Origin: Pseudomonadota bacterium
Lineage (GTDB): Bacteria; Bdellovibrionota_C; UBA2361; OMII01
Assembly (NCBI GenBank): GCA_038134595.1
Contig: JAYPVM010000005.1
Coordinates: 21,408-85,407, forward strand
Length of the DNA: 64,000 bases
Direction: 5' to 3'
Shown piece by piece: positions 11,419 through 34,495 of this stretch (position 1 is the stretch's first letter; every line of letters starts with the position of its first letter). The notes beneath the pieces were generated by a model, which was given only the letters and a program-made list of their open reading frames with translations, had not been told where the DNA came from and searched no databases. The translations under genes were made by a program, and so were the position numbers.

Positions 11419-12582
11419 CTAAGTAGACACCCCTTCACTGCCACTAGCGGTGTTCGTTAAAAACCTTACAATTTCTAAAAACGTGTCTTCACGATTCGCT
11501 ACCGCTGAGTGCCCACCCTGAACCCAACGTAGGTCCACATCGCTCCATCTCTTCCGGAGCTCAGAGATCTGCCCGATTGGAACTAAATGATCTCCTTCCC
11601 CCCCTATTACCAACATTCGTTTTTGCGGCGTGGCGGGCAGAGAATTATAAGGGCAGTGGTCTTGATAGAGACTCCTTAAAAAGTCTCTATCGATGCCATC
11701 GCTCTGACCATCCTTAGAAAGCAGACTCCAAGCCATGTCTCCCATTGAGAACATGGGAACTAGAAAGAGTGCCCTATCCAAGACATCTCGAGACGCCCAA
11801 ACTGCACCGACATACGCACCTAAACTCATACCAACCGTAGCAACCCGCCTAGATCCCTTAGACTCAAGGTAACTACGAAGCACACGGAGGTCGTGAAGCG
11901 CATGGGCAATTGCTATACATGTCCGCACAGGATCAACACTCGGAAATAAAGGACCATCTACTGAAGATTTAGTTGGCATTCTACGACCATGAAAAGGCAG
12001 CTCAACCAAGGCCACATCAAAGCCGAGACGGTAGAGAATACCTGGTAGAAATGCTAACGAATTAGCCCGCTGATCTCCCATCGTCCAGCCGTGAATACCC
12101 ACGACCGTCAATCGCTCCTTATTGCCATCGCTGTGGGACCAGAACCTTACAAAAGACGCTGCGTTCTCTTCAATCAGCCTATAACTAGGATCTAAATGTA
12201 ATCTAGAATCTGGAAATGGTGATGCAAACTTTAAATCATAAACCGCCCCATCTGGAAATCCGTGAACCTGAGTTACTTCCGGAATTGGCGTAAAAGAAGG
12301 CCTCTCAAACAGTAGATCTAGAGCACCGGTTTTGCGAGTTTTTTGAAGAAACTCACCCTTCTCTACCAAAAGCTCGATATTCAGAGAGGGTGCAAAACTT
12401 TGGAGAGACACTTCTCCTAGGCTTTTACCAAGTCGACCCAAGACCCGGTCTAATCCCCTTCCTCCCACTACGGTAAGTCGCTCAACGTCACTGAGACGAC
12501 TGTCAACACAGCCATTAAGAATACAAAAATCAGACGGCGAATCAGCCATTAACGACATTCCTTGAATGTTTTTACCCCACAC
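11419..12582 (-). CDS. alpha/beta-fold hydrolase
   Basis: 387 aa. Nucleophile elbow GMSLGA. Start codon uncertain. Confidence 0.7.
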   Translation of the reverse strand: MWGKNIQGMSLMADSPSDFCILNGCVDSRLSDVERLTVVGGRGLDRVLGRLGKSLGEVSLQSFAPSLNIELLVEKGEFLQKTRKTGALDLLFERPSFTPIPEVTQVHGFPDGAVYDLKFASPFPDSRLHLDPSYRLIEENAASFVRFWSHSDGNKERLTVVGIHGWTMGDQRANSLAFLPGILYRLGFDVALVELPFHGRRMPTKSSVDGPLFPSVDPVRTCIAIAHALHDLRVLRSYLESKGSRRVATVGMSLGAYVGAVWASRDVLDRALFLVPMFSMGDMAWSLLSKDGQSDGIDRDFLRSLYQDHCPYNSLPATPQKRMLVIGGEGDHLVPIGQISELRKRWSDVDLRWVQGGHSAVANREDTFLEIVRFLTNTASGSEGVST

Positions 12583-13074
12583 CTACAGACAGCCAAACAG
12601 TAACAACGGAACAAGCTGCCAGAGAGCACCCGGGCGCGCCTCGGCTTCGTTTCCGGGTAAAGCTTATTCTTTCTCACACTAATATGATGCCGGCCCATCA
12701 ATGGTAGATTGGGATAACTTGCTAATTATACCAGAATATTCCTTCGGTCGGATAGAAAATCTACGGTCAGATATGGCTGCAAATTGAAAATGACTCTTAA
12801 GCCAAGAGGTTTTTAAACAGAACAGTGGATTAATAACTAAGTCTCCAGTAGGCTATCCAGGGTAGCATGATAGTGGGATTGTCCGACTGCACCTATAGCC
12901 GCAAGAGTTTGCGTTACGTTTTCAAGAGCAAAAACTACGTATTTTATATGAGATACCGGTTACCTTGCCCCTGACAGCTAACTAGCCCTTCGTGCAATTT
13001 GGGCTGCTTGCCGGATAAGCAAAACTCACAGCACTACTGGCTCCCGTTGGGTGTTATTTTGAGCTCGCGTCTTT

Positions 13075-13116
13075 CCATCCCTAGGAATAATCAATGACGG
13101 TTATTCGTAGGGATGG
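13075..13116. promoter_or_regulatory. 42-nt near-perfect palindrome (16-nt arms CCATCCCTAGGAATAA / TTATTCGTAGGGATGG, 1 mismatch, 10-nt spacer) in a divergent intergenic region; candidate operator or structured RNA element
   Basis: Read directly from the sequence. Lies ~50 nt upstream of the RBS of small ORF 13164..13430, in a 1-kb non-coding region. Confidence 0.3.
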
Positions 13117-13163
13117 CAGAGCATGGTGCGATGCCAAAATAGATCACTAAGGAGGATTGCGTT

Positions 13164-13430
13164 GTGGCAATTAGCTATGATCCGCTCACAGGAGCACGTG
13201 AAGCAACATGGGCACCCGGTGGGTCGCCCGAGAGGGACCTCACCGAGGCCTTTCTTCGGTACTGCAACACCGTACCAAAAAGGAATAGGAATTTCGCCAG
13301 CTGCGTTCGACAATGGGCACAACTGAGAATACAGGCGGAACAGAGTGTCGATCCGGAAGGGGCAGACGCAAAAAAGATGCCACCGGAGTTTCGGAAAAAG
13401 CTTCAGGAGGCCTTTGCCTCTCGGTTTTAG
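13164..13430 (+). CDS. hypothetical small protein (GTG start)
   Basis: 88 aa. Consensus AGGAGG at 13150..13155, 8 nt before the GTG. GC-rich hairpin terminator immediately downstream. The antisense ORF 13101..13484 is low-complexity and rejected. Confidence 0.5.
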   Translation: MAISYDPLTGAREATWAPGGSPERDLTEAFLRYCNTVPKRNRNFASCVRQWAQLRIQAEQSVDPEGADAKKMPPEFRKKLQEAFASRF

Positions 13431-13443
13431 ATGATTAAACAAG

Positions 13444-13476
13444 CTCCAGGGGAAGCCGCTTGTGCTTCCCCTGGAG
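13444..13476 (+). terminator. putative intrinsic terminator (13-bp perfect stem CTCCAGGGGAAGC/GCTTCCCCTGGAG, 7-nt loop, followed by GATTT)
   Basis: Perfect inverted repeat 14 nt after the stop of ORF 13164..13430. The U-tract is short. Confidence 0.45.
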
Positions 13477-13584
13477 GATTTCATCGACTAAGGTTATCTA
13501 ATGCTCTGCACATCCATCGTTGCCAATGAAAAAGGGCAAATGCGGCTTTAGAAAAAAGAGACTGGGTTAAGGAGCGCTCTTGAG

Positions 13585-14973
13585 ATGCACCGAGACGATT
13601 TTAGACGTGAAAGCGGCGAAATGAAAGAAGAGACACATCATAGCTCACATGTGCCCGATGCTATAGATGGCGCAATAACACCACCATTGGACCGCACGTT
13701 AATTCTTGATCTCTTAATTGAAACGGCACTGACCTCTGACAACCCCGTGGAGGAGCTCCATGCCATTCAAGCTGATTCCCGATTCGACTACAAAGGCGCA
13801 CAGAGGGATTTCTGTGACACGCTCTGGAATATTGAACAACGACACTTTGATAAACTAGTATCTTCCTCACAATACTCAGCCGAGCTTGTAGGTGCTATAA
13901 GGCACCGCGGCGAAATATTTGTCCAACTGAATGCCTATCACATCCCGTCAGCATCCATCAATGCATGGCTACAACTGGCATCTGAAGAGATTGAATTCCT
14001 CAATCATCTACCGGAATGGAACGACGCCGACGTTCTCCTTTGCTCACATGCGCTCTCTGTTCTAGAGGAGCTTGTCGTAAATGGGCCGTCCGAATGGTCA
14101 ATATATGAAAAACTTCAGGCCAATATTCTTCAACAACTAGAGGGGATGTCACACCGTTTTTTTCACGATGAAAATTTATCCTCACCTCCGGAGGAGGCAA
14201 ACAGAGTAGCTCTGCTCTCTTGGTTAGTTCTTGCAAATGATTCTGGTATTGATTCCCTCAAAAATGAGGCGGCTGGCCTAATCCCGCAGCTACTCGAAAT
14301 CTGGAAATTAGTGGATCAAAGAGACGGCGATTCAGAGTCAGAAGATGAATCCCTCTATCCCCAGAGTGAGTGCGACAAGGAAGGGGATACAGACTCCGAA
14401 TTTTTATTAGAAAATCTGGAAAATTGGCGGGCGAACAACCAAGAGGAATCCACGGATGAGACATTCGCAATTGACTCAGATGAGGACAACCTGGAATGGC
14501 GAGAAGGCTTTGAGTTATCTGAAATCCAACAGTGGGAACATGCGTTAACTTTAGCTCTCCAGGCCGGCCAGTCGAGAATCGATTTAGATGATGAGTTCAT
14601 ACTAGTCCTACACACAGCCGATATAGGCTCCGATCTGTGGCAGTCTGCTTTTGACGGACTCTTAGTCTCGTCCTATGCAGAGAGCCTACGCGTTATTGAA
14701 TCGTTGTTCGACACAGTGCAATCGATGCCGGGGGCAATGCGGCATATTACATCACCCCTCGATGCATCCGAGAGAATTTCCCACAAATTCTATTATTCCC
14801 CTCCTGACCTTCTGCAAGACGCACTACAAAAAGAAAAACCTAGGGCTAGGCGAAAGATCTTAAAAATGATCTCTAAATATATCGAAGATGAAAAACTCTC
14901 GGGGGGTGAAACTGAAGTGATGGCTTCAAGGTTCAATAAACTTCTTCGAAACCTTCGTGGATTAAAGCGATAA
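13585..14973 (+). CDS. hypothetical protein with a strongly acidic central region
   Basis: 462 aa. AAGGAG RBS 9 nt upstream of the ATG. D/E/S-rich segment (DGDSESEDESLYPQSECDKEGDTDSEF...EESTDETFAIDSDEDNLEW). No recognisable domain. Confidence 0.6.
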   Translation: MHRDDFRRESGEMKEETHHSSHVPDAIDGAITPPLDRTLILDLLIETALTSDNPVEELHAIQADSRFDYKGAQRDFCDTLWNIEQRHFDKLVSSSQYSAELVGAIRHRGEIFVQLNAYHIPSASINAWLQLASEEIEFLNHLPEWNDADVLLCSHALSVLEELVVNGPSEWSIYEKLQANILQQLEGMSHRFFHDENLSSPPEEANRVALLSWLVLANDSGIDSLKNEAAGLIPQLLEIWKLVDQRDGDSESEDESLYPQSECDKEGDTDSEFLLENLENWRANNQEESTDETFAIDSDEDNLEWREGFELSEIQQWEHALTLALQAGQSRIDLDDEFILVLHTADIGSDLWQSAFDGLLVSSYAESLRVIESLFDTVQSMPGAMRHITSPLDASERISHKFYYSPPDLLQDALQKEKPRARRKILKMISKYIEDEKLSGGETEVMASRFNKLLRNLRGLKR

Positions 14974-14981
14974 AAATCATG

Positions 14982-15659
14982 TTAGCGAACTTTCGCAGCT
15001 TGATTTTGAGCTGAATTGACTGTTACATGTAGCAGCGAGTCCTGAGTGAACAATTTTTCAACTAGCGACAGATCTCCCAATGCTGAAACTAATGCACCTT
15101 CAAGCCAGGTGCTTGCGTGACCTCTTGCCATCTCGTCGAATAACTTTTGGTTTAATACGAATTTTTCTAGTTCTACTTTAGGAACGCCATCAGTTATTTC
15201 GAACTTGCCGGCTAGCTCTCCAGTTGCGAAACGAGAGTTAATGTTTGGTACAATGATGCGAGCAGCTCGCCATTCACCAAGAAAACCGAGCGGTAGAGAG
15301 AACCTCAAAAACACCTTATCCCCATTGAGAGCAAGGGATATGTTTTCCTCTAAACCTCGGATGCGCACAGCTGCGTTTAGATCTGTGCTAGTAAAGCTAT
15401 CCGCGAAGTCATTACCAGAGTCCAATGCGCGGAGTAATCCTAACAACTTATCGCCATTTACATTGTCATTAGAGGATACGTCCTCGCTCAGGCGCACGAG
15501 GCTAGAGGCCGCGGGCGTTGTATACATCTCCACAGCACCTTTAACACTGCGAATTCCCCACCAGGTTAGAAAAGCCCCTAGAATAATGACTATGAAAGCC
15601 GAAATAAGGCATCCGTAACTAAAACACCCGGGTTGTTTGGATTGCGAATTCACCAACAA
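14982..15659 (-). CDS. hypothetical membrane-anchored protein (single N-terminal TM)
   Basis: 225 aa. Hydrophobic helix CLISAFIVIILGAFLTWWGI followed by a soluble domain. Confidence 0.5.
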   Translation of the reverse strand: MLVNSQSKQPGCFSYGCLISAFIVIILGAFLTWWGIRSVKGAVEMYTTPAASSLVRLSEDVSSNDNVNGDKLLGLLRALDSGNDFADSFTSTDLNAAVRIRGLEENISLALNGDKVFLRFSLPLGFLGEWRAARIIVPNINSRFATGELAGKFEITDGVPKVELEKFVLNQKLFDEMARGHASTWLEGALVSALGDLSLVEKLFTQDSLLHVTVNSAQNQAAKVR

Positions 15660-15660
15660 A

Positions 15661-15894
15661 TTACTCCGCGACCTTAGAGTGTGCCTCTTCTTGAATTGCT
15701 TTTATCTGGCTGTCGAAGAGACATCCACGTAGTGATCGCTCATCCACCTCGCCTAGTTTTTCGACACAGGCCTTACACAGACCAACATCTATTGAATCTC
15801 CATTCGCATTGCGCCATGGAGAACATGGATCGACAGGCGCCACCGAGCAACCTAAAAAAGATAGAAACACTACGGTAAAAAACAGGGTTCTCAT
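15661..15894 (-). CDS. hypothetical small secreted Cys-containing protein, possible lipoprotein
   Basis: Internal Met (MRTLFFTVVFLSFLGCS...) gives a signal peptide with a lipobox-like FLGC. Six Cys in ~77 aa. The track start 15957 would overlap the SNF2 gene. Same strand, 46 nt downstream of the SNF2 helicase. Confidence 0.4.
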   Translation of the reverse strand: MRTLFFTVVFLSFLGCSVAPVDPCSPWRNANGDSIDVGLCKACVEKLGEVDERSLRGCLFDSQIKAIQEEAHSKVAE

Positions 15895-15940
15895 AACGAG
15901 CAGTTGTAGCAGAGACTCTCTTAACTGAAAAGACCAAGCT

Positions 15941-18712
15941 TTAGAGCTCAAGCGCATTCATGAGTTCTTCCCTGCTAATTCCACCTACGAAACCCTCTTG
16001 AGTGTTACTCGCTGCGTAATCACCTAACGTTTTAGCCTGCCCCTTCTCTTTTCGCCTCAAATTCCAATGAATAATCTCATCAACTTTGCACCCTACTAGC
16101 GAAATTATATTTACGGTACCGGTCTGACCGATCCGATGAATTCGATCAACGGACTGCATCCAATGTTCTGCATTCCACGTTTTTTCAAGATAAACGGCAG
16201 TTTGAGCGGCTGTCAGTGTTATTCCGACACCGCCAGCAGCTGGCACCGCTACTAATATCGAAGGCGAATCCTCCTCTTGAAATGCTCTAACTGTCTTTTC
16301 CCGCACAGAAGTCGCCACTTCACCAGAAAACGGTGCGGCACCATATGATTTATAGCGGTCACATAACTCTACGATATTTCCAAGGTAATTCGTCCAAATT
16401 ACCATTTTCTGCCGATGTTCGCCGACAACTTCCCGCACAAGCTCATCTAATTCTACAAATTTAGCAGGCTCTCCTGTCCACTGAGGATCGATTAAACGAG
16501 GGTTTGAAGCTACTTGCACTGCCCGAAGATACTCTTCAAGGATATTGGTTATTTCTCGGACAAACTGCTCTCCAGAGAGACTTCGCATGCGTAGCATCAA
16601 TCCTTCGCGAATTTCATTATACCGCTCTAGCTGGGTCCCTCGAAGCTCAACCTCCCGAAGCGAAAACGTCTTCGCAGGTAAGTTTACAACATTCTCCTTT
16701 CGCCTCCGAAGCATTACCTCATGTACTCTATGAATACTTTCGCGGACTTCATCATCTCGGAACTTTTTGACGGCATACTGGCTAAATTCCGTGCCGAGTT
16801 CAGCAACCTTTGAAAGCCATTTGTAATAACTCTTACCGAGCCTAAGACCTCCGTCAGCTATCTTCATTTGAGCCCAAATATCAGACACATCCTTTGGTGT
16901 AGGAGTACCGCTTAATAAAACCCTTCGGTCACAGGCACAAGCAACCTGACTGACAGCCTTAAAAGTCTTGCCGGAGGGATTCTTAATGCGCTGTGACTCA
17001 TCTAAACACAGTAAGGTCTTTTGACTACGAACGAGAGCCTCAACTTCAGGGCTAACATATTCTAGTCGAATCGCCTCATAATTTACGATAAGCACATCAC
17101 AGGACGCACTTCCACTCGATAACAGACGAAGATTCCAAGCCTTAGCCTTTTTGTCTCCGGACAGGGTATGCACCTTCAGGTCAGGAAACCACATAGCAAC
17201 CTCCCTCGCCCAGTTTCGCGCAAGTGAGTTAGGACAAACAACAAGAAGCTGAGAACAGTCTTCCATGTTTCGCAACGACCAAAAATAACTAAGCACAGAG
17301 AGCGTCTTACCCAAACCCATATCATCGCCTAAAAATGCATAGGGCGTCTTCATTAACCAGGAGACAGCTACGCGCTGATGGGGAAATAACCGCTTGCACT
17401 CTTCAAGACTGAGACCTGAGATTCCATCATAATTGACATCTTGCAAGCCTGCATAAAACCTCGCCTGCTCCAAACGTTGAATTCTATCTCTACAGTCTTC
17501 CAGAAGTCGTTCAAAAGACTGACTGATAGGAAAAGGATTTTCCCCGAAGTCGGTACATAGCCGATCAATCTCTTGCTTTATTGACAGGAGCTTTGAATCG
17601 GGAACCTCTAATAAAGGACTAGTTGCGGAGTCCTGGTAACTACCGCCAGTCTCCTCCCTAAAAGTATCGAATATAAGTCCGCGCAACTCTCGATCGATTC
17701 CGCCACCAATTAAAAGCGCCCCTCGACCTGACTCCAAAGTTTTCCAAAGACTCGCCGAATCGAGTAAATCCGCTGCCTCATCCTCAAGAACAACGTCCCC
17801 AGAACCAATTCGGCCGAAAACTTCCTCTCTCCTATCTGATATAAATGAATGAACATCGCGCGCAAGCCATACTGGGAATGGAAGAGAGGATATTCTTCCA
17901 GCCAACTGAATCAGTTCTCGCTCATTTAAACTAATAGGCTGCCCCGACTGCCGTCGAAAACCGGGAAAGGCAAGCTTAAATTGCTCTCTTGAAAAACTCT
18001 GGGGCTCAAACGAGCCAACATTTTCGCTCGAAACATCAATAAAAGGAGTGAGGAGCGATTCCTTCAATTCCTGACCGGTGGCGCTACCTCTGTCCTTTTC
18101 AATGGATTGGCGCACGGCAGCAGTCTTTTTAAGAACGAGCCCAGCTTGTTCCTCAATAGCGAACAAAATGTTTTTATCGCGGCACCGCTTGACAAAGGAG
18201 CTTAGCTCGGAGGCCGGTAGCGTGAATGCCTTATCCGAGGAGCAGAAGACTGCAGATGAGAGTCGCTGTAGGATACGATAAGCCGGATGCCCCACGCGAG
18301 CCACTACCTTAAGCCTTCTAGCCTTATCTTCAAGCCGTATAATTACCTCTAATGGAGCACCCGCAATCGCTATTTCTGGCACTGCGAACGGATTGTTACG
18401 GAGACACTCCAAAGCCTCCCCTATAGCTAACGGCGGCTCCTCAAGCGGATACACTCCATCTAGCACGCCCACGCCGGAAAATTCTGGGAGCGTTACGACC
18501 CGATGATAATCAGAGAAAGCGATACGCCAACTCTTATCCTCTGCATTGTAACGAGAGGTTGCCACCGCCTTAATAGCCTTGACCCGATCTGGCCTATACC
18601 GGAAGTCCACGAGAACAAATTGCCCGTTACGGAAAAATGAAACTATTGGTCCAGACTCCTGCCTCCACCAACGTTTAGAACCCTTCTTGGTGGTATTCTT
18701 CGCTTTAGCCAT
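15941..18712 (-). CDS. SNF2-family DEAD/DEAH-box helicase
   Basis: 923 aa. SNF2_N motifs (LGDDMGLGKT, DESQRIKN) and helicase-C (HRIGQ). Lys-rich N-terminus. ~450-aa N-terminal region of unknown function. Confidence 0.9.
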   Translation of the reverse strand: MAKAKNTTKKGSKRWWRQESGPIVSFFRNGQFVLVDFRYRPDRVKAIKAVATSRYNAEDKSWRIAFSDYHRVVTLPEFSGVGVLDGVYPLEEPPLAIGEALECLRNNPFAVPEIAIAGAPLEVIIRLEDKARRLKVVARVGHPAYRILQRLSSAVFCSSDKAFTLPASELSSFVKRCRDKNILFAIEEQAGLVLKKTAAVRQSIEKDRGSATGQELKESLLTPFIDVSSENVGSFEPQSFSREQFKLAFPGFRRQSGQPISLNERELIQLAGRISSLPFPVWLARDVHSFISDRREEVFGRIGSGDVVLEDEAADLLDSASLWKTLESGRGALLIGGGIDRELRGLIFDTFREETGGSYQDSATSPLLEVPDSKLLSIKQEIDRLCTDFGENPFPISQSFERLLEDCRDRIQRLEQARFYAGLQDVNYDGISGLSLEECKRLFPHQRVAVSWLMKTPYAFLGDDMGLGKTLSVLSYFWSLRNMEDCSQLLVVCPNSLARNWAREVAMWFPDLKVHTLSGDKKAKAWNLRLLSSGSASCDVLIVNYEAIRLEYVSPEVEALVRSQKTLLCLDESQRIKNPSGKTFKAVSQVACACDRRVLLSGTPTPKDVSDIWAQMKIADGGLRLGKSYYKWLSKVAELGTEFSQYAVKKFRDDEVRESIHRVHEVMLRRRKENVVNLPAKTFSLREVELRGTQLERYNEIREGLMLRMRSLSGEQFVREITNILEEYLRAVQVASNPRLIDPQWTGEPAKFVELDELVREVVGEHRQKMVIWTNYLGNIVELCDRYKSYGAAPFSGEVATSVREKTVRAFQEEDSPSILVAVPAAGGVGITLTAAQTAVYLEKTWNAEHWMQSVDRIHRIGQTGTVNIISLVGCKVDEIIHWNLRRKEKGQAKTLGDYAASNTQEGFVGGISREELMNALEL

Positions 18713-18803: not shown

Positions 18804-19955
18804 GTGACTGGTGGGCGTCAAGGCATTAGTAACGAGATGACAAGTCTATCTATACGGAATATCACGAAGCGTTTTGGGGGTCTACCCATCCTCGACAATA
18901 TCTCAATCGACATCGAAGATGGTGAATTTTTCTCACTTCTCGGTCCGTCTGGTTGTGGCAAATCAACTCTCCTGCGGATCATCGCTGGACTCGAGCAAGC
19001 CGACTCGGGAACAATAGCCGTTGGAGGAGACTCGATCGACCACCTCCCTCCACAAAGAAGAGGCATAGGCTTTGTATTTCAAAACTATGCCCTTTGGCCC
19101 CATATGACCGTTCTCGATAACGTACTTTTTGGACTCAAAGCCAACGGGACTCCTCCGAGTGTTCGAAAGAAAAGGGTCGAAAACGTGCTTGAGCTTGTTC
19201 AACTCTCCCATCTACGCGCGCGATTTCCACATGAGCTCTCCGGAGGACAGCAGCAACGTGTCGCGCTCGCGCGCGCTCTTGCAATCCGTCCTTCGGTTAT
19301 CCTTCTTGACGAACCATTGTCTAACCTCGACGCTCGCCTAAGGCTTGATATTCGAAACGAGCTTGCGGCACTTCACCGAGAACTTGGCACGACCACGGTA
19401 TATGTCACTCACGATCAAGACGATGCCCTCTCGCTCTCAAATCGAATCGCACTTGTAAATTCGGGACAAGTTGCACAAATAGGCACGCCAACGCAGCTCT
19501 ATTTCACTCCCCAATCAAAGTTTGTTGGAGAATTTCTTGGATCAACTAATTTAATTGATGCAACTGCCTATAAGCCAGGTATACACGACGAACTACACGT
19601 CTCGATAAATGGGATTTCCCATGCGCCTATAATCCTTCACCAGAAGTTAGCGCTCGCTTCTTCGGAAGATAAAATAAACGGCACGCTATCCATTAGGCCA
19701 GAGAGTATTAGAGCTTCGTGCAACCCCGACGAGCAATCTGGTAAACTCGAAGCCGTAGTAGTTAGTCGTCAATTTCGGGGGTTTTATGAACTCATCGAGC
19801 TGAGATTGAAAAATGGGGTAACCCTTAACCAGATTACAACTGAGCGTAGTCCAGACGACGGAGTAGTTGAGGGCGCTACCGCTTATATCACCTGGACTGC
19901 AAGTGACTTACTATTTCTTCCTGAAAGTATGGAGAAAGCTTGTGCGAGGGCATAG
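18804..19955 (+). CDS. ABC transporter ATP-binding protein (FbpC/PotA/ThiQ-like importer ATPase with C-terminal TOBE-like domain)
   Basis: 383 aa. Walker [10 protein letters not shown], signature LSGGQQQRV, Walker B ILLDEP. True start may be the internal Met of MTSLSIRNI. Confidence 0.9.
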
Positions 19956-22941
19956 AATTCAGCTCATAGTACTGGCATTATTTGCAAGTCTATTCTTATT
20001 TTATCCTCTCTCTCACATATTGGTTTATTCAGTTCAGTACAACAATGAACTATCACTTCGTTTCTTTAAAATCCTTTTTACCACGAAGCTCTATCAAGAT
20101 TTAATTCTTCACTCGTTAAACATAGCGCTTGCTGTAACAATCATCTGCTCCGTATTCGCCTATTTCATAGCATTCTTGTTAACTCGCTTTAACATCCCAT
20201 TACAAAAAATACTGGCGACCTTGGTCATCGCTCCTCTTATCGTCCCACCATTTGTAGGAGTAATCGGTGTAAAGCAGCTTTTCGGCCGTTTCGGAAGCAT
20301 AAACCTCCTCCTGTTGCACAATAATATTGTAGAGGAACCGATAGACTGGCTAGGATCAAACGGATTGATTGGTGTTATCGCTCTTCAAGTTGTTCACTTG
20401 ATGCCGATACTGTTTTTGACGCTACGAGCGTCACTGAGAAATTCTCACCAATCGCTTGAGGAAGCGGCCCTTGTATCTGGTGCAACAACTCTGTTTAGCC
20501 TTCTAAAGATTACACTTCCCCTTACCCTTCCCGGGTGGTTCGCGGGAGCTACCTTAGTTTTCGTTGCGAGCTTTACCGACCTCGGCACTCCGCTGATGTT
20601 TGACTACAGAGAGGTCATAAGCGTTCAGATATTTAACATGCTCTCGGATATAAATACGAACCCAGTTGGATACTCTCTTGTCGTTTTTACTTGCATTATT
20701 TCGATTGTTCTCTATACGCTCTCTCGATCGCTATTTCTCTATGGCGGATTTGTCTCAACGGATAAGTACTCAAAACGAGCTCCGCAGTTTGTAACATCGA
20801 AGTCTACAGCTTGTATCCTTGGCGGGATCGTTTTTGCTTATGGGCTTATGGCATCTATCCCGCAACTCTCCCTTGTTCTTACTGCGAGCAGTGAACGGTG
20901 GTTTATGACTATAGCACCTGAAAAGCTCACTCTAAACAACTTCCTACTGGTCTTTTCGCATCCACTTACAGCTCGAAGCATTGCAATAAGCATTCTATTG
21001 AGCGCGCTTGCAACAATCCTTACCATTCTTCTGGGATTAACTTCATCGCATATTATTTCACGAGCCGGCCGGACTATCAGCTCCGTTGTAGAGTCGATCT
21101 CTCTTGTACCACTTGCTATTCCCGGCTTAGTTTTTGCATTCGGATTTATCGGAGCGTTTGCCGGAAGTATAATCGACAACCGAGTCAACCCCCTACCACT
21201 GCTTGTATTCGCATATACGGTCAGGCGACTTCCGACCCTTGTACGAATCACAACAGCGGGCTTTCAAGAGGCTAATAAATCGCTTGAAGATGCGGCGTAT
21301 ATAGTCGGAGCGGGTCGCTATCAAACCATGCGTCAAATTATCCTACCCCTAGTAAAAAGACATTTATACGCGGGAGCGTTACTCACGTTTGCATATTCCA
21401 TGATTGAAGTAAGTGATAGTCTTTTTCTCGCCCTGGAGGAGAAGTATTACCCTATAGCGAAAGCTATGTATGCGCTTATTGGCCGCCCAGATGGGATAGA
21501 GCTTGCGTCCGCCTTGGGTGTTATCGTAATGGCAACACTAATTATTCTCTTTTATCTCTCGCAAAGATTGTCGGGCTCGACTCTTAGGACACTGTCAGCG
21601 ATTGTCGGAATTTTAGTAGTCGCGCCACGGCCTTCACTAGCGTCCGCTGACGAACTCGTTTTACTATCGCCTCATTGGGAGGGTATTCGCCACGAATTTT
21701 CTGAAGCTTTTGCTCGATCATGGGAGAAGCGGACGGGCAAAACGGTGGAATTTCGCTGGATGGACGTTGGAGGAACCTCCGACATAGTCAAATACGTAAA
21801 GAGCGAATTCAAGCGGAACCCAAACTCCATCGGAGTCGATATCTTCTTCGGGGGCGGAATAGACTCTTTTCTTGAGCTAGAGCGGTTTGGGTTCCTAACG
21901 CCTGCCAAGATAAGTGAGCGGGTGCTTGCCCAGATACCATCTGACATAGCTGGAACACCGCTGTTTTCAGAGTCTCATCTCTGGTTTGCAAACTCCATGA
22001 GTACATTCGGGATTCTTTGCAACCTCGATGCCCTAAAACTTCTCCGCAAGCCTGCTCCTCGCTCCTGGGCAGCCCTGGCGAGCCCAGAGTACAATAGCTA
22101 TATTAGCGCGGGAGATCCCAGAAAAAGTGGGAGTATGCACGCCATGTATGAGATTATCCTGCAAGGATACGGCTGGGAGAAGGGTTGGGAAATCATTTAT
22201 GGAATTGCCGGTAATACCAGACGATTTACTAACAACGCAAGTCAGGTTGGCAAAGACGTAACTACTGGTGATGCCCTTTGTGGGATAGTCATCGACACGT
22301 ACGCTAATGAAATAGTGAAGCGAGTCGGCGAGCAGCATGTCTCATTTATCCTTCCGGAGGATTTCGTCTCGGTCAATGGTGATGGAGCTGCTATCTTGCG
22401 CGGCGCTCCAAACATGCAAGTGGCGCAAGCATTTGCTGAATTTCTACTCACCAAAGAAGCCCAGACGTTGTGGTATGGGAAAAAAGGGGTTACTGGAGGA
22501 CCGCAAAGATATGAAATAGGAAAGCTCTCGGTGCTACCATCGATTTATGATACAACTGCTCCCGCTTCGCTATTCCGTTCAAATCCATTCCGCTTGCCAA
22601 ATATGCTTTCGTACAACGCCTCCCTTGCATCCGCTAGGTGGAACATTCTAAACGATTTGTTTGGGGCATTTATTGTAGACACCCACAGCAACCTCAAGTC
22701 GTTATCATCAAACCAACTACCCAATCAAGCGCCAGTTTCAGAAGAGATGATAAACAACTTACAGAAGACAACCCCGTGGGGAGATGACCAGAGCTTGCGA
22801 GCACAAATTGTAGCCCAGTGGAGCACGCAAGCACAAAAACTAGTAGCTGAATCGAATCGCCAAGCCGGAGTCTCAAAAATTCCTGTTCTATTGCTTTTAG
22901 CAAGTCTTATTCTAACGCTGGGCGCTCGAAGGTTCCGATAG
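19867..22941 (+). CDS. ABC permease (two-repeat FbpB/ThiP-type) fused in-frame to an iron(III)/thiamine-family periplasmic solute-binding domain
   Basis: 1024 aa. Residues ~1-570 are a 12-TM-type double permease. Residues ~600-1024 are SBP-like. The junction carries a signal-peptide-like segment (LSGSTLRTLSAIVGILVVAPRPSLASA/DE). A likely alternative start is GTG 19942, overlapping the ATPase stop. Confidence 0.85.
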   Translation: MRALPLISPGLQVTYYFFLKVWRKLVRGHRIQLIVLALFASLFLFYPLSHILVYSVQYNNELSLRFFKILFTTKLYQDLILHSLNIALAVTIICSVFAYFIAFLLTRFNIPLQKILATLVIAPLIVPPFVGVIGVKQLFGRFGSINLLLLHNNIVEEPIDWLGSNGLIGVIALQVVHLMPILFLTLRASLRNSHQSLEEAALVSGATTLFSLLKITLPLTLPGWFAGATLVFVASFTDLGTPLMFDYREVISVQIFNMLSDINTNPVGYSLVVFTCIISIVLYTLSRSLFLYGGFVSTDKYSKRAPQFVTSKSTACILGGIVFAYGLMASIPQLSLVLTASSERWFMTIAPEKLTLNNFLLVFSHPLTARSIAISILLSALATILTILLGLTSSHIISRAGRTISSVVESISLVPLAIPGLVFAFGFIGAFAGSIIDNRVNPLPLLVFAYTVRRLPTLVRITTAGFQEANKSLEDAAYIVGAGRYQTMRQIILPLVKRHLYAGALLTFAYSMIEVSDSLFLALEEKYYPIAKAMYALIGRPDGIELASALGVIVMATLIILFYLSQRLSGSTLRTLSAIVGILVVAPRPSLASADELVLLSPHWEGIRHEFSEAFARSWEKRTGKTVEFRWMDVGGTSDIVKYVKSEFKRNPNSIGVDIFFGGGIDSFLELERFGFLTPAKISERVLAQIPSDIAGTPLFSESHLWFANSMSTFGILCNLDALKLLRKPAPRSWAALASPEYNSYISAGDPRKSGSMHAMYEIILQGYGWEKGWEIIYGIAGNTRRFTNNASQVGKDVTTGDALCGIVIDTYANEIVKRVGEQHVSFILPEDFVSVNGDGAAILRGAPNMQVAQAFAEFLLTKEAQTLWYGKKGVTGGPQRYEIGKLSVLPSIYDTTAPASLFRSNPFRLPNMLSYNASLASARWNILNDLFGAFIVDTHSNLKSLSSNQLPNQAPVSEEMINNLQKTTPWGDDQSLRAQIVAQWSTQAQKLVAESNRQAGVSKIPVLLLLASLILTLGARRFR

Positions 22942-24570: not shown

Positions 24571-27525
24571 CTATTCAGTCTGACTGGTAAAGCCCGATGC
24601 CCGCTCAGCCCTGTCTAATACATACAACAATTCCTCCCGAGAGAGGTGAAAATCGCTTCCCTTCTCTCCATCCAAAGAATTCTTTATCAGTTGCCTTTTT
24701 CGACGCTGTAACTCCAACACTCGATGCTCGACCGTATCTTTTGCCACTAGTTTGTGAACTACAACGGGATTTTCCTGTCCTATCCTATGAGCTCTGTCGG
24801 CCGCCTGATCTTCTGCAGCAGGGTTCCACCACGGGTCTAGGATATAAACGTGGTCAGCTGCCGTTAAGGTTAATCCGACACCACCTGCTTTAAGCGATAT
24901 TAGCAACACATCAGGCCCTGAGTCCGACTGAAAACTCTCTACCACCGCACCCCGATTGGTCGTATTGCCGTCAATACGTCCAAAGCTTATCCCTGAGTCG
25001 GTGAGAAGAGGTTCTACCTTATCGAGCAACGAAACCCACTGAGAAAAAACAAGGCACCGATGACCATACGCCTTAGATTGCTCTAGATGGTGCATTAAAA
25101 GAGATAGTTTACTCGAAGTCTCACTGGTTATTCCGGGTACCATCCCTGTGTGACAGCAGGCTTGTCGGAGCCTGAGAAGCATCTCCAGAATAGAAAATGT
25201 CCCGCCACCACTATCTAGTTTATCAACTACAGAACTTTTTGTACTCGTAAGAATTGCGTCATACACCACTCGCTCTTCGCTCGAAAGCTCGCACTCTAAA
25301 ACCATTTCCGTCTTAGGTGGCAATTCCTTAGCAACGTCTCGTTTGTATCGTCGCAAGACAAATGGAGCTACACGAGCCCTAAGATGTGATATATCAACAC
25401 TCTCTCTTGACTCTTTGCCCTGCAGATATTTTCTTTCGAATTCCGCAAGTGTGCCCAGCAATCCAGGGTTTAAGAAGTTACACTGACTCCACAGATCGCG
25501 GGCGCTGTTTTCAATAGGAGTGCCCGTTAAGCATATCTTATAGCGACTTTTTATTTGATACGCAGCTCTTGCCACCTGGCTATATGGATTTCGGATTACA
25601 TGGGCCTCATCAAGTACAACGGTCTCCCAATCACTAGCTGCCAGGCTAGCAACATCTGCTCGAAGAATTCCATACGTAGTTATCGTTATCTGCGCGTTTA
25701 GATCCAATTGTCGTTCTGCACCGTGATAAAGTGCCGTTTTTCTACCGGGCAGAAATGACGCAACCTGTTCTTGCCAACTCGATACAACTGAGGTCGGACA
25801 GACAATCAGAGACTTGCCACGTAGGGCACACAGCGCCTGAACAGTCTTGCCTAGGCCCATATCATCGGCAAGGAGTGCGCCTATGTCGTGGTCCATTAAA
25901 AACGATAGCCAATTTACACCTACTTTCTGATAAGATCTAAGGCTGCAGGTTAATTCAGCCGGAAGCTGGCTATCGGGGATACTCGAACAGTCTGCCAATC
26001 CCTTACCAAGCCGAGAGAAATACCGCGGGGGATCTACACCAAGCGATTCTGATATCTCCAATACGTCAGGCAAAAATACTCTAGAGCAACTTTCAGCGTC
26101 CCTTCGTCCTTGAAGCAGCCGTTGCAGTGCCTCACTATGAGCCAATAACCACTGATCCGGAAAGCCCAGCCATCCAAAACCCTCGTGATAATATGCACCA
26201 TTGGACCTAAAATCCCACGCGTCCAGTATCGTTTGTGCGGAAATGCTATCCCCATTGGGCGCTTGAAACTCAACTAGAAGACCAGTATTGCTTCCTGTTA
26301 CGGTCGGCACCAACGCAGTTGTCGATCGACACAGCGAGATATCACTTCCTTCAATACACTTATCAGCAATCTGCGCCGCGATATTTACGACCTTCTGCCC
26401 GGAGAATACAGTCGGAACATCCCTACGAAGTCCGTACTGCTGCTCGACCTGCCGCAACAATGCGCCCTCCTGCACCATGTCACGAATTGGTACCTCGTAA
26501 CGATTTTTGATTTCACACTGCCCCAAGCGAATTTCTGCTATGCAAGGATCTCCGTATTGGATTACCGGAAGAACACTTAGAGCTTGTCCGTGCTCAAAAG
26601 CCTGTGCCTCAAATCGAACCGTTGGACGTAATTTTCTTGCCTTTGGTAGAGAGCACCCTATCGTCTCAACCGCAATCTTGGCGCGAAGATTCGGGATAAC
26701 TCTCGTAGAGAGATCGAGAGAATCTGAATGGTTGAAAATCTTACCAGCCCCTTTAAGCATCTCAAAATCTTCATACCGAAGAGAGGAGTCCTCGATTGCG
26801 CTAAGAATACCATCAAGGATAACCGCGCTATTATCAAAAACCTCTGTTGTAGCGTCAGCCATTTTTCTACGAAGACAATACCCCTCAGAAACATCTACCA
26901 CCTCCGCCACAACAGGCATAGCCTCCGGCGAGACCCGGATTGGTTCACCGTCCAATTCAACATGGCGGACTCGAGCTAATGATGGGAGCAGATACCGCAT
27001 AGTCTGAGGATCGAGCACACCGTTCTTCTGAGTCATTAATACGTGATCGATATTCATCTCCTGATCGCTCATTGAGAAATGAGCAGTCGAATTTGATCCG
27101 TTTAACTTCAAGGTCTGTAGTAGCGATGTTTTTACCTCTATACGAGAATCGTTAGAGACAAGATAGCGAGTAAACGATAAAACACTGCCCTGACGAAAAA
27201 AAGCATGCACCACCGAGCCCTGGCGAACACTTGCAACACTCGAGGAATTCTTACGAACCGCTCCTTGCTTTACGGCGATAAGGGTTGCTAATACATGTTC
27301 GCACGGGTCAACATCTCCCCCACAATCACAATCCCAGCTTTCATCTTCCGGTGTTAACGAGACGATTACATCTCGGTCGCGACTAGCTGAATGGATATGG
27401 TATTCATGCTCGCCTAGATCACCTGTGCGGATCCACGTAATTTTAGCATGCCGAGCGAGTGTTACAGCCGTTGTCCAAACGCTCCCGTCGCTTAACTTCC
27501 TTGCTAACGCAAATAAACTATCCAT
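24571..27525 (-). CDS. SNF2-family helicase with N-terminal SWIM zinc finger
   Basis: 984 aa. SWIM CxCxnCxH (WDCDCGGDVDPCEHV) near the N-terminus. SNF2_N (LADDMGLGKT, DEAH-like LDEAHVIRN) and helicase-C (HRIGQ). Confidence 0.9.
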   Translation of the reverse strand: MDSLFALARKLSDGSVWTTAVTLARHAKITWIRTGDLGEHEYHIHSASRDRDVIVSLTPEDESWDCDCGGDVDPCEHVLATLIAVKQGAVRKNSSSVASVRQGSVVHAFFRQGSVLSFTRYLVSNDSRIEVKTSLLQTLKLNGSNSTAHFSMSDQEMNIDHVLMTQKNGVLDPQTMRYLLPSLARVRHVELDGEPIRVSPEAMPVVAEVVDVSEGYCLRRKMADATTEVFDNSAVILDGILSAIEDSSLRYEDFEMLKGAGKIFNHSDSLDLSTRVIPNLRAKIAVETIGCSLPKARKLRPTVRFEAQAFEHGQALSVLPVIQYGDPCIAEIRLGQCEIKNRYEVPIRDMVQEGALLRQVEQQYGLRRDVPTVFSGQKVVNIAAQIADKCIEGSDISLCRSTTALVPTVTGSNTGLLVEFQAPNGDSISAQTILDAWDFRSNGAYYHEGFGWLGFPDQWLLAHSEALQRLLQGRRDAESCSRVFLPDVLEISESLGVDPPRYFSRLGKGLADCSSIPDSQLPAELTCSLRSYQKVGVNWLSFLMDHDIGALLADDMGLGKTVQALCALRGKSLIVCPTSVVSSWQEQVASFLPGRKTALYHGAERQLDLNAQITITTYGILRADVASLAASDWETVVLDEAHVIRNPYSQVARAAYQIKSRYKICLTGTPIENSARDLWSQCNFLNPGLLGTLAEFERKYLQGKESRESVDISHLRARVAPFVLRRYKRDVAKELPPKTEMVLECELSSEERVVYDAILTSTKSSVVDKLDSGGGTFSILEMLLRLRQACCHTGMVPGITSETSSKLSLLMHHLEQSKAYGHRCLVFSQWVSLLDKVEPLLTDSGISFGRIDGNTTNRGAVVESFQSDSGPDVLLISLKAGGVGLTLTAADHVYILDPWWNPAAEDQAADRAHRIGQENPVVVHKLVAKDTVEHRVLELQRRKRQLIKNSLDGEKGSDFHLSREELLYVLDRAERASGFTSQTE

Positions 27526-33205: not shown

Positions 33206-34495
33206 ATGCGTAAGATATCAATCAAATTAGGAGAGCGAATGGATGGCTCAGCCGAGATTCGCATCGCCCCTGAACAACTCTTTGGGTGCCACTGTGCTAT
33301 ACTCGGAAGCTCGGGGAGCGGAAAAAGCTGGACCCTTGCCCGATGCCTCGAGGAGTCTGCTAACTATGGCTCTAAATTTGTCCTACTTGACGTATCAGGC
33401 GAGTACAGCAACCTCGAGCACCGGACGTTTCACATCCACATCCCAACCACTCACGCGATCACACCCTCATCGGAGAATAGATCAGTGGCCGCGACCATAC
33501 CGTACTATGAACTGACAGAATCAGACCTGTTTTCGATATTCGCGCCTAATGGACCTCTGCAACGCGTAAAACTTAGAGAGGCAATGCGCACTCTCAAGTT
33601 ACTGCAACGAATCCCCCAGCTTGCGGTTAGTGGCGTATTTCCGAAATCAAACAAACTTAAAGCGCCCTATGAAGAGGCGCTCATTGCAGAGTCAAAAAGT
33701 ATCAACCGGCCCGACAGCATTTTTAACGTGTATAACCTTCCAAACCAAATAGCACACGAGTGCGTTGACCCATCTAGAAGCGACGCGGAACAGGGGTACT
33801 GGGGTTCGGTAAATAGCGCAGACCAAACCGAGTGTGCGTCTCTCATCCATAGGATTGACGACCTCTTAAAGCAGGGTACATTAAATTGTATATTTAATCC
33901 TCCCGCTATCCCTAGCGTCTTCGAGGCACTCGAGAAATTCATAACCGATGATACCGTTTCCATTCTAAGAATCTCGCTAGAGGAGCTCCCGATAGCAAAT
34001 GAAGTTCGAACAATCGTTTTAGAAGCCATCGCTCGCACGCTACTATCAATGGCCCGACATAACGAGTTTCGAGAGAGACCAGTAGTCTTGGTTATGGATG
34101 AAGCTCACCAAGCCATTTCCCCGGGGGTGGCCGCCAGACAGCTTGAAACGCCTAAATTCCCTGTATTCGAATCGATTGCCAAGGAGGGAAGAAAATACGG
34201 ACTAACCCTCTGCTTGGCAACCCAACGGCCAGCAGATCTTTCAGATGGCATCTTAACGCAGGTGTCCACTTTTGTCGTGCACCGACTTATCGGGAAAGGA
34301 GACCAGGATTCGGTACAGCACGTATTAGGCGGAGTCGACGCCTCACTGATAAAAAATCTAAGTAAATTACCAAAGGGGAGCGCAATTTTAATAAGTGGTG
34401 GATCGCATACGACCTTGAAGGTAACAAAGCCAGATGTTCCACCTGTATCAAATGGCCCTAATTACCAACAAGCATGGTCCCAATCAAAGCGGTAA
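33206..34495 (+). CDS. HerA/FtsK-superfamily P-loop ATPase (DUF87-like AAA-like domain protein)
   Basis: 429 aa. Walker A AILGSSGSGKSW. Walker B plus DEAH-like VVLVMDEAHQ. Arginine-finger-like LATQRPADL. No partner nuclease or effector gene adjacent. Confidence 0.7.
   Translation: MRKISIKLGERMDGSAEIRIAPEQLFGCHCAILGSSGSGKSWTLARCLEESANYGSKFVLLDVSGEYSNLEHRTFHIHIPTTHAITPSSENRSVAATIPYYELTESDLFSIFAPNGPLQRVKLREAMRTLKLLQRIPQLAVSGVFPKSNKLKAPYEEALIAESKSINRPDSIFNVYNLPNQIAHECVDPSRSDAEQGYWGSVNSADQTECASLIHRIDDLLKQGTLNCIFNPPAIPSVFEALEKFITDDTVSILRISLEELPIANEVRTIVLEAIARTLLSMARHNEFRERPVVLVMDEAHQAISPGVAARQLETPKFPVFESIAKEGRKYGLTLCLATQRPADLSDGILTQVSTFVVHRLIGKGDQDSVQHVLGGVDASLIKNLSKLPKGSAILISGGSHTTLKVTKPDVPPVSNGPNYQQAWSQSKR

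Follow-up and report, generated by a model that had tools for sequence, protein, structure and literature searches.

Lineage-restricted genes next to an SNF2 helicase gene in uncultured Bdellovibrionota: one system, a foreign island or a mosaic?

What are the genes that fill positions 12583-15957 of a 64,000-nucleotide (nt) stretch of Bdellovibrionota DNA (assembly GCA_038134595.1, contig JAYPVM010000005.1, positions 21,408 to 85,407; the whole stretch is called the window below), and do they belong together? A first, sequence-only reading had singled out this patch, between housekeeping genes and a gene for an SNF2-family helicase, and had proposed that it encodes secreted effectors or lineage-specific factors. 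Four products are concerned: a small protein of 88 amino acids (aa) (orf88), an acidic 462-aa protein (p462), a 225-aa membrane protein (p225) and a small lipoprotein. As detailed below, the balance tips towards a mosaic: three units restricted to a lineage of uncultured Bdellovibrionota and inherited vertically, which would form neither one system nor a foreign island, namely an envelope pair made of the lipoprotein and p225 (Unit A), p462 (Unit B) and orf88 (Unit C).

All the open reading frames (ORFs) named in the sequence-only reading were recovered with their coordinates. The orf88 and p462 genes lie on the + strand (13164-13430 and 13585-14973, respectively), and the p225 (14982-15659) and lipoprotein (15661-15894) genes on the - strand. 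The last two are co-oriented with the SNF2 helicase gene (15941-18712, - strand, 923 aa) and follow it immediately on its 3′ side, as had been noted; a 46-nt gap separates it from the lipoprotein gene. None of the four proteins matched any family of Pfam, NCBIfam, PADLOC or PHROGs, and searches of PDB sequences with the proteins or with their family profiles returned nothing meaningful. The statement that the patch holds no recognisable families was thus confirmed. These sequence families are new to the curated libraries searched; the folds themselves, where modelled, are of known kinds. The ratio of nonsynonymous to synonymous substitution (dN/dS) is 0.18 for p462, 0.22 for p225 and 0.16 for the lipoprotein, the last two measured against the related locus L002, compared with 0.03-0.11 for neighbouring housekeeping genes. 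The values for p225 and the lipoprotein indicate that both are real and fairly fast-evolving genes.

Comparison of GC content and codon usage with the flanking genes, which the sequence-only reading had recommended, gave a divided answer. The p462, p225 and lipoprotein genes lie near the other genes of the window in GC and in a codon index built from its 36 long ORFs, p225 being low (0.796, about 2.5 standard deviations under the mean of 0.832 ± 0.014). Only orf88 deviates, as the sole GC-rich gene of the patch (54.7% versus 48.2 ± 1.2%). Since the composition is native and the synteny (see below) vertical, horizontal acquisition of the whole patch was rejected and the patch is not a foreign island.

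In species-representative genomes, alignment of the SNF2 protein gave 56 loci. Without exception they come from uncultured Bdellovibrionota, or from metagenome-assembled genomes labelled ‘delta-proteobacterium’, and lakes and rivers are the main sources. A p225 homologue, as judged by tblastn and family hidden Markov models (HMMs), was found directly 3′ of the SNF2 gene and on the same strand in every one of the 26 loci of this set that carry p225, with a lipoprotein ORF between the two genes in 15 of them. The flanking genes for an ABC transporter, an alpha/beta-hydrolase (abhydrolase; 11419-12582 in the window, - strand, with an ATG at 12549 according to gene callers) and an ACAD9/VLCAD-like acyl-CoA dehydrogenase (ACAD), the latter two located upstream of the patch, are syntenic as well. 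The order ABC-SNF2-(lipoprotein)-p225-abhydrolase-ACAD is retained throughout the clade. Orthologues of housekeeping function in phylum-wide synteny would have spoken against lineage-specific factors; syntenic orthologues do exist, over the clade only, and none has a known function. The p225 and lipoprotein genes turned up in a single clade of uncultured Bdellovibrionota and the p462 family is rare, so that the description as lineage-specific factors holds. For the phylum, PMC12724312 reports 12 known isolates, whereas its genomes number over 1,120.

The sequence-only reading had also asked whether the block is variable. The lipoprotein-p225 pair and the flanking genes are stably placed; variability is confined to the slot between the p225 and abhydrolase genes. 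In some loci this slot is empty; in others it contains a fusion gene of the patatin-Omp85 (PlpD-like) type, a 2,411-aa ORF without Pfam match (L021:13721-20956, also in L037) or ORFs of 238-300 aa without assigned function. It was observed at L014:13854-16106 (- strand), in L031 and at L109:5691-7892 (+ strand), and its counterpart in the window is at about 12550-13584.

The genomic context of the p462 gene was examined as well. The protein was found identically on the NCBI contig and in Logan assemblies. Its near relatives (63-68% identity) are in L002, L006 and L007, and the next clade, at 35%, comprises L004 and L005. The visible gene order around these five genes is that of the window, the short contigs of L006 and L007 covering the hydrolase/orf88/p462 side only. 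Loci L008-L063, among them the 26 species-representative p225 loci, yielded no member of the family, and neither did the species-representative genomes scanned with it. Among five remote relatives examined, P0011, P0013 and P0019 (about 20% identity) are convergent to a p225-like gene that follows SNF2, and in P0013 and P0019 a patatin-Omp85 fusion gene directly precedes, on the same strand, the p462-family gene. A small ORF, a patatin-Omp85 gene and a p462-like gene follow one another in this order in two remote relatives. The simplest reading is that the p462 gene is an old occupant of the p225-abhydrolase slot that has often been lost. As a separate observation, the stop codons of the convergent p462 and p225 genes (14971-14984) are 8 nt apart in the window and 5 nt apart in L002. 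No terminator lies in this gap. Either the two transcripts overlap, or they must end within the opposite gene.

We turn now to the smallest of the three units. The orf88 gene has a GTG start, preceded at a distance of 8 nt by AGGAGG (13150-13155), the consensus ribosome-binding site (RBS) which the sequence-only reading had pointed out. The predicted product is basic (isoelectric point, pI, 9.1) and without hydrophobic segment, and the gene is annotated as a coding sequence in the NCBI record. The frame is open in the four available lineages, with a start shifted by 1 nt to TTG in L002. By the Nei-Gojobori method, dN/dS is 0.29-0.46 in this frame, whereas the other two + strand frames give about 0.6-2.1, with most values close to 1 or higher. 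Searched among 17,370 ORFs, the orf88 HMM gave two weak matches (E 0.03 and 0.06), ORFs of 114 and 136 aa whose place and orientation, in L031 and L014, are those of orf88, and which share with it the pattern F..(V/L)R.W...R ... NP ... FR.AL(E/Q)E.F. These sequence comparisons suggest that orf88 is probably a genuine gene for a small basic protein. Two family assignments were rejected: DUF3106 (PF11304) reached 19.0 bits against a gathering cut-off of 24.3, with a weak match in only 2 of 6 relatives, and TrbK remained below its cut-off and was not reproducible in relatives. An antisense ORF of 127 aa (13101-13484, - strand) was discarded too, being broken in L007 and L002. Peptide patterns of orf88 had no match in a JGI metagenome scan, and the 38 metagenome matches of the invariant 18-mer ATGCTCTGCACATCCATC were all chance matches as judged by BLAST.

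Two hairpins flank orf88, and they are the strongest non-palindromic inverted repeats of the window. The first (13053-13144, + strand; inverted repeat I2 of the window) is an imperfect long stem-loop of 36 predicted pairs with its core at 13075-13090/13101-13116. It ends 5 nt ahead of the orf88 Shine-Dalgarno sequence and folds at -40 kcal/mol with RNAalifold. Of its 7 variable pairs, 6 remain able to pair, and pairing extends to 99% of cells, figures without statistical power. The second (13444-13476), located between orf88 and the p462 gene, is a perfect hairpin of 13 bp (9 G-C) with a 7-nt loop, and its stem is invariant in 4 lineages. It had been described as a GC hairpin terminator. The G+C-rich stem is indeed present; as an intrinsic terminator on the + strand it fails, since the tail on this strand (GAUUUCAU, GAUUUCAUCG) is a poor U-tract, and the terminator scan flagged it on the - strand only (tail CUUGUUUAAU). 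The two hairpins are unique in the window, which ruled out a repeated element of the repetitive extragenic palindrome or miniature inverted-repeat transposable element (REP/MITE) kind.

Could the block that contains them (13053-13584) act mainly as a structured RNA, non-coding or dual-function, or could it be a small cassette exchanged recently? The block is 73-87% identical to L002, while synonymous sites of its neighbours are saturated (proportion of synonymous differences, pS, 0.54-0.67); pS of orf88 against the relatives of the window is only 0.23-0.37 and the non-coding flanks diverge by only 12-17% (15-17% for the 3′ flank of orf88). The block folds with z-scores of -4.1 on one strand and -4.9 on the other. 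The two strong hairpins, the high GC content of orf88 and the flat distribution of its substitutions over codon positions point in the same direction. Against this, purifying selection is seen in the orf88 frame only. In comparisons among L002, L006 and L007, moreover, pS of orf88 (0.17-0.32) is comparable to that of p462 (0.21-0.33), showing no extra constraint there, and lowered pS is also found at the 5′ ends of the p462 and abhydrolase genes. Rfam gave nothing at the gathering threshold over the whole window or at a permissive threshold over 12400-13700, and covariation, based on 3-4 sequences, is without power. The block is, moreover, single-copy and has the same context in every contig in which it was found. 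We therefore regard a primarily RNA or cassette nature as possible, with a clearly minor share of the probability. Whichever applies, the low divergence of the block would reflect either constraint at the RNA level, by a structured leader, or a more recent recombinational exchange between lineages. In the mosaic that we prefer, orf88 would sit in a structured, conserved leader running into the RBS of p462 (AGGAG, 13570-13574). The two genes would then be co-transcribed, and the hairpins might control RNA stability or translation.

The p462 protein is acidic, as had been claimed (pI 4.5, with 89 D+E), and its D/E/S-rich core corresponds to residues 250-311 (nt 14332-14517), where 23 D/E and 7 S are found in 62 residues. 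The AlphaFold2 model is all-helical (predicted local distance difference test score, pLDDT, 75; predicted template modelling score, pTM, 0.72), with disorder at residues 1-33 and 250-311. As modelled, p462 is an ARM/HEAT-like alpha-solenoid, with tandem helical repeats in a superhelix from which the acidic stretch emerges as an internal disordered loop. At the sequence level, ARM/HEAT repeat profiles included, no Pfam family matched at E ≤ 0.1 and no PDB sequence at E ≤ 1. The earlier description of these proteins as domain-less is thus contradicted by confident models for both p462 and p225 (pLDDT 75 and 79, respectively).

The family is small. At 90% clustering, 6 proteins matched p462 among 5.8 billion, and a profile search retrieved 22 representatives among 1.84 billion. 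The 20 matches beyond the two seeds of the first search are mostly of 390-500 aa, with a 120-aa fragment and a 597-aa protein as extremes. An acidic insert of variable length occupies one and the same position in most members, with little or none in P0025 and P0027. Only W128, L131, H155 and L359 are invariant across the family, from which we infer that p462 has no catalytic role. It could instead be a cytoplasmic scaffold acting by protein-protein binding, whose acidic loop might engage, or mimic, a basic or nucleic-acid-binding partner.

It has to be weighed here whether p462, possibly together with its neighbours, is a secreted effector of a bacterium that is predatory or associated with a host. 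ARM/HEAT-like repeats of eukaryotic type are common among effectors of intracellular bacteria, and the rarity and lineage restriction of the p462 family would suit such a role, as would the position of its gene after an outer-membrane lipase gene of the patatin-Omp85 type in some relatives. Bdellovibrionota are described as mostly predators (PMC8067016). However, no signal peptide or hydrophobic N-terminus was detected on p462 by hydropathy, without a dedicated predictor: the best 19-residue Kyte-Doolittle mean is 1.22, in the interior of the protein, and the N-terminus is polar. Export or anchor signals are present on the lipoprotein and p225 only. The low dN/dS of p462, its stable chromosomal position and its native composition are not in favour of an effector either, and neither a secretion apparatus nor a mobile element adjoins the gene in the lineage of the window. 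With its predicted solenoid fold and internal acidic loop, p462 does not bear out the suggestion of a secreted effector, which we consider improbable.

The envelope pair follows SNF2 directly. The lipoprotein frame was listed as a 98-aa ORF (15661-15957, - strand) abutting the SNF2 gene. Since the upstream extension is interrupted by a stop in L002, the true start is the internal ATG at 15894, giving a 77-aa precursor. This product carries a signal peptide and a lipobox FLGC (window sequence MRTLFFTVVFLSFLGC), with L[ST][GA]C or an equivalent at the aligned position in relatives, and by these sequence signals it qualifies as a lipoprotein for which lipid modification and cleavage by signal peptidase II are predicted. 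The mature part, of about 60 aa, has 4 conserved Cys arranged as C-x2-W ... C-x2-C ... R-x-C. A small secreted lipoprotein-like protein had been proposed with 6 Cys; the lipoprotein signals are there, whereas the Cys number is 5, the lipobox Cys plus these 4.

The p225 gene starts 1 nt after the lipoprotein stop (from a 4-nt overlap to a gap of about 13 nt in relatives), and its GGAG is embedded in the last codons of the lipoprotein gene; by this arrangement, the two genes are tightly coupled translationally. The start used by NCBI is 6 nt further downstream (223 aa). In agreement with the single-pass membrane protein described previously, p225 has one hydrophobic segment (residues 13-37, nt 15549-15623), just ahead of which stands a GC-x3-GC motif (G-C-x3-G-C) invariant in the family. 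The AlphaFold2 model, made with 13 sequences (pLDDT 79, pTM 0.66), shows an alpha/beta C-terminal domain. Its top Foldseek matches are weak: CETP (E 3.6e-3), YceB (1.8e-2) and BPI, with SPLUNC1 and OrfX2 lower. TULIP proteins were the best structural neighbours of this domain by two methods, weakly and consistently. In sequence searches, neither DUF1439 nor any TULIP Pfam matched at E ≤ 1 among 23 family members, and the family profile found no TULIP chain in PDB at E ≤ 10. On the strength of the model, a TULIP-like, ligand-binding ectodomain may be proposed: p225 would be oriented N-in/C-out, exposing the alpha/beta domain in the periplasm, where it could bind a lipid or another hydrophobic ligand. 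The disulfide-stabilised lipoprotein would be its partner in the envelope, and the pair would form the tail of the SNF2 transcription unit.

This raises the question of whether SNF2, the lipoprotein and p225, with or without p462, make up one system, either a membrane-anchored SNF2 defence of the Zorya/DISARM/Dpd kind or an SNF2-controlled switch of surface structures. The strict co-orientation with short gaps, in all 26 species-representative p225 loci, would fit, and the SNF2 core matches ZorD, DpdE and DrmD of PADLOC as well as the NCBIfam ‘pilus expression-regulating Snf2’ model. These matches span only the generic helicase core, however; the NCBIfam scores are far under the curated cut-offs (for example, 132 bits versus 1100 and 89 versus 1500), and the PADLOC models carry no curated cut-offs. 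None of the partner genes matches a PADLOC model; ZorABC, Drm and Dpd partners are absent, as is any nuclease domain. Unlike defence islands, the locus lies in clade-wide synteny with housekeeping genes, and SNF2 homologues of 37-48% identity are without the lipoprotein/p225 pair. The defence reading fails because system-specific partner genes and an island context are both missing. A single system is in our view unlikely, and the conserved adjacency of the patch genes and SNF2 may reflect strong regional synteny alone.

Finally, the lack of known families for all four ORFs and the failure of the gene finder to call orf88 in L002 might suggest that a long intergenic region has, by chance, kept some frames open. 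This is hardly credible: each of the four frames is open in several lineages and evolves there under purifying selection (dN/dS 0.16-0.46), two of the proteins give confident structure models and the lipoprotein gene, by family HMM, is present with its Cys pattern and lipobox in 18 of 32 loci carrying p225, all of which speaks strongly against this view for p462, p225 and the lipoprotein.

The mosaic itself is not free of difficulties, and several points weigh against it. Two of the five remote p462 relatives are placed elsewhere, one after secY-adk and the other after a gene for an extracytoplasmic function (ECF) sigma factor and a VWA gene; the p462-p225 adjacency may accordingly be inherited synteny and not functional linkage. 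The solenoid matches of p462 are generic and silent on its partner. Basic residues stand on both sides of the p225 transmembrane helix, the topology of which is predicted. Substitutions in orf88 are nearly flat over the three codon positions (17/18/21), and coding alone does not explain the nucleotide conservation of the block. Co-transcription of the patch genes, too, is read from their arrangement.

On the other side of the orf88 block lies the divergent non-coding region whose length had been put at about 580 nt. This ORF-poor spacer measures 581 nt with the coordinates of the sequence-only reading and 614 nt with the abhydrolase ATG at 12549; the part between the abhydrolase gene (- strand) and the orf88 block (+ strand), 12550-13052, shares 50-71% identity with L002. 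On the minus strand at 12733..12725, about 176 nt upstream of the abhydrolase ATG, stands a perfect extended -10 box, TGGTATAAT, which is invariant in L002 and L006. It was missed by the consensus promoter scan because no -35 box matches. From its sequence and position, it is likely the promoter of the abhydrolase-ACAD unit. Amid the poorly conserved spacer, some 45 nt at 12812-12860 (AAACAGAACAGTGGATTAA..AAGTCTCCAGTAGGCTATC) hardly vary among three lineages, and they match neither a promoter nor an RNA family in any obvious way.

Elsewhere in the window, a second SNF2-family helicase of 984 aa (24571-27525, - strand) far outscores the first against DpdE (E 1e-117) and ZorD (1e-95) of PADLOC and against the NCBIfam ‘SCO1167/SCO6262 family helicase’ model (382 bits, for a cut-off of 1200). 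Its gene adjoins an SLT-domain gene, an arrangement conserved in relatives. A 429-aa HerA/FtsK-like ATPase (33206-34495, + strand) gives a sub-threshold match to ‘anti-phage-associated helicase HerA’ (128 bits versus a cut-off of 800). A 1,024-aa ORF (19867-22941, + strand) fuses ABC permease domains (BPD_transp_1 in relatives) to a periplasmic substrate-binding domain, and this fusion is kept in relatives at 999-1,010 aa.

Taken together, these results provide a useful annotation with one unexplained detail, the orf88 block, and not a surprising discovery. Provided that the inferences are correct, three protein families outside the curated libraries can be defined from this locus, in a phylum with very few cultured members. 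The pair of Unit A, a TULIP-like protein tethered to the membrane and a lipoprotein dedicated to it, would then enlarge the short list of bacterial TULIP systems and would bear on lipid handling by predatory bacteria. The practical value lies in better annotation and in a short list of testable candidates, and current views are not overturned. A bolder proposal can be put forward tentatively, as a doubtful extension of the above: the lipoprotein and the membrane-anchored, TULIP-like p225 might constitute an undescribed two-component module for periplasmic lipid handling or sensing in uncultured Bdellovibrionota, a single-domain, membrane-tethered counterpart of TipA/TipB. This module would be co-expressed with the SNF2 ATPase, and its history would link it to a patatin-Omp85 lipase and to the acidic-loop solenoid. 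Independently, the orf88 block could be a new structured or dual-function leader RNA.

How do these candidates compare with known systems? For p462, the fold relatives are the ARM/HEAT scaffolds WapL, APC-ARM, importin/karyopherin and beta-catenin, with only 5-16% identity. In contrast to these, p462 is bacterial, 462 aa long and encoded by a single gene, and the fold matches imply neither homology nor a common partner. It would represent a compact bacterial case of an architecture familiar mainly from the transport and chromatin factors of eukaryotes. The PlpD-type patatin-Omp85 lipases (type Vd secretion) that precede the p462-family gene in remote relatives lend the neighbourhood a lipid and envelope flavour; the 64-kb window itself contains none of them, and the linkage is not obligatory because the patatin-Omp85 gene lies elsewhere in other relatives.

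For p225, the modelled C-terminal alpha/beta wrap weakly resembles YceB/DUF1439 and other TULIPs (BPI, CETP, Takeout, P47). YceB is a periplasm-facing lipoprotein (PMC5507252), and p225, like it, is tethered to an envelope membrane. In the same phylum, TipA/TipB of Bdellovibrio bacteriovorus form an operonal pair of a TULIP protein and a small adapter (bioRxiv 10.1101/2025.09.09.675085), a combination of a large and a small partner which offers a working analogy only for p225 and its lipoprotein. TipA is a soluble, dimerising double TULIP, whereas p225 is membrane-anchored and has at most one TULIP-like domain; TipB is a beta-sandwich, whereas the small partner proposed here is a lipoprotein rich in Cys, with a mature part of about 60 residues.

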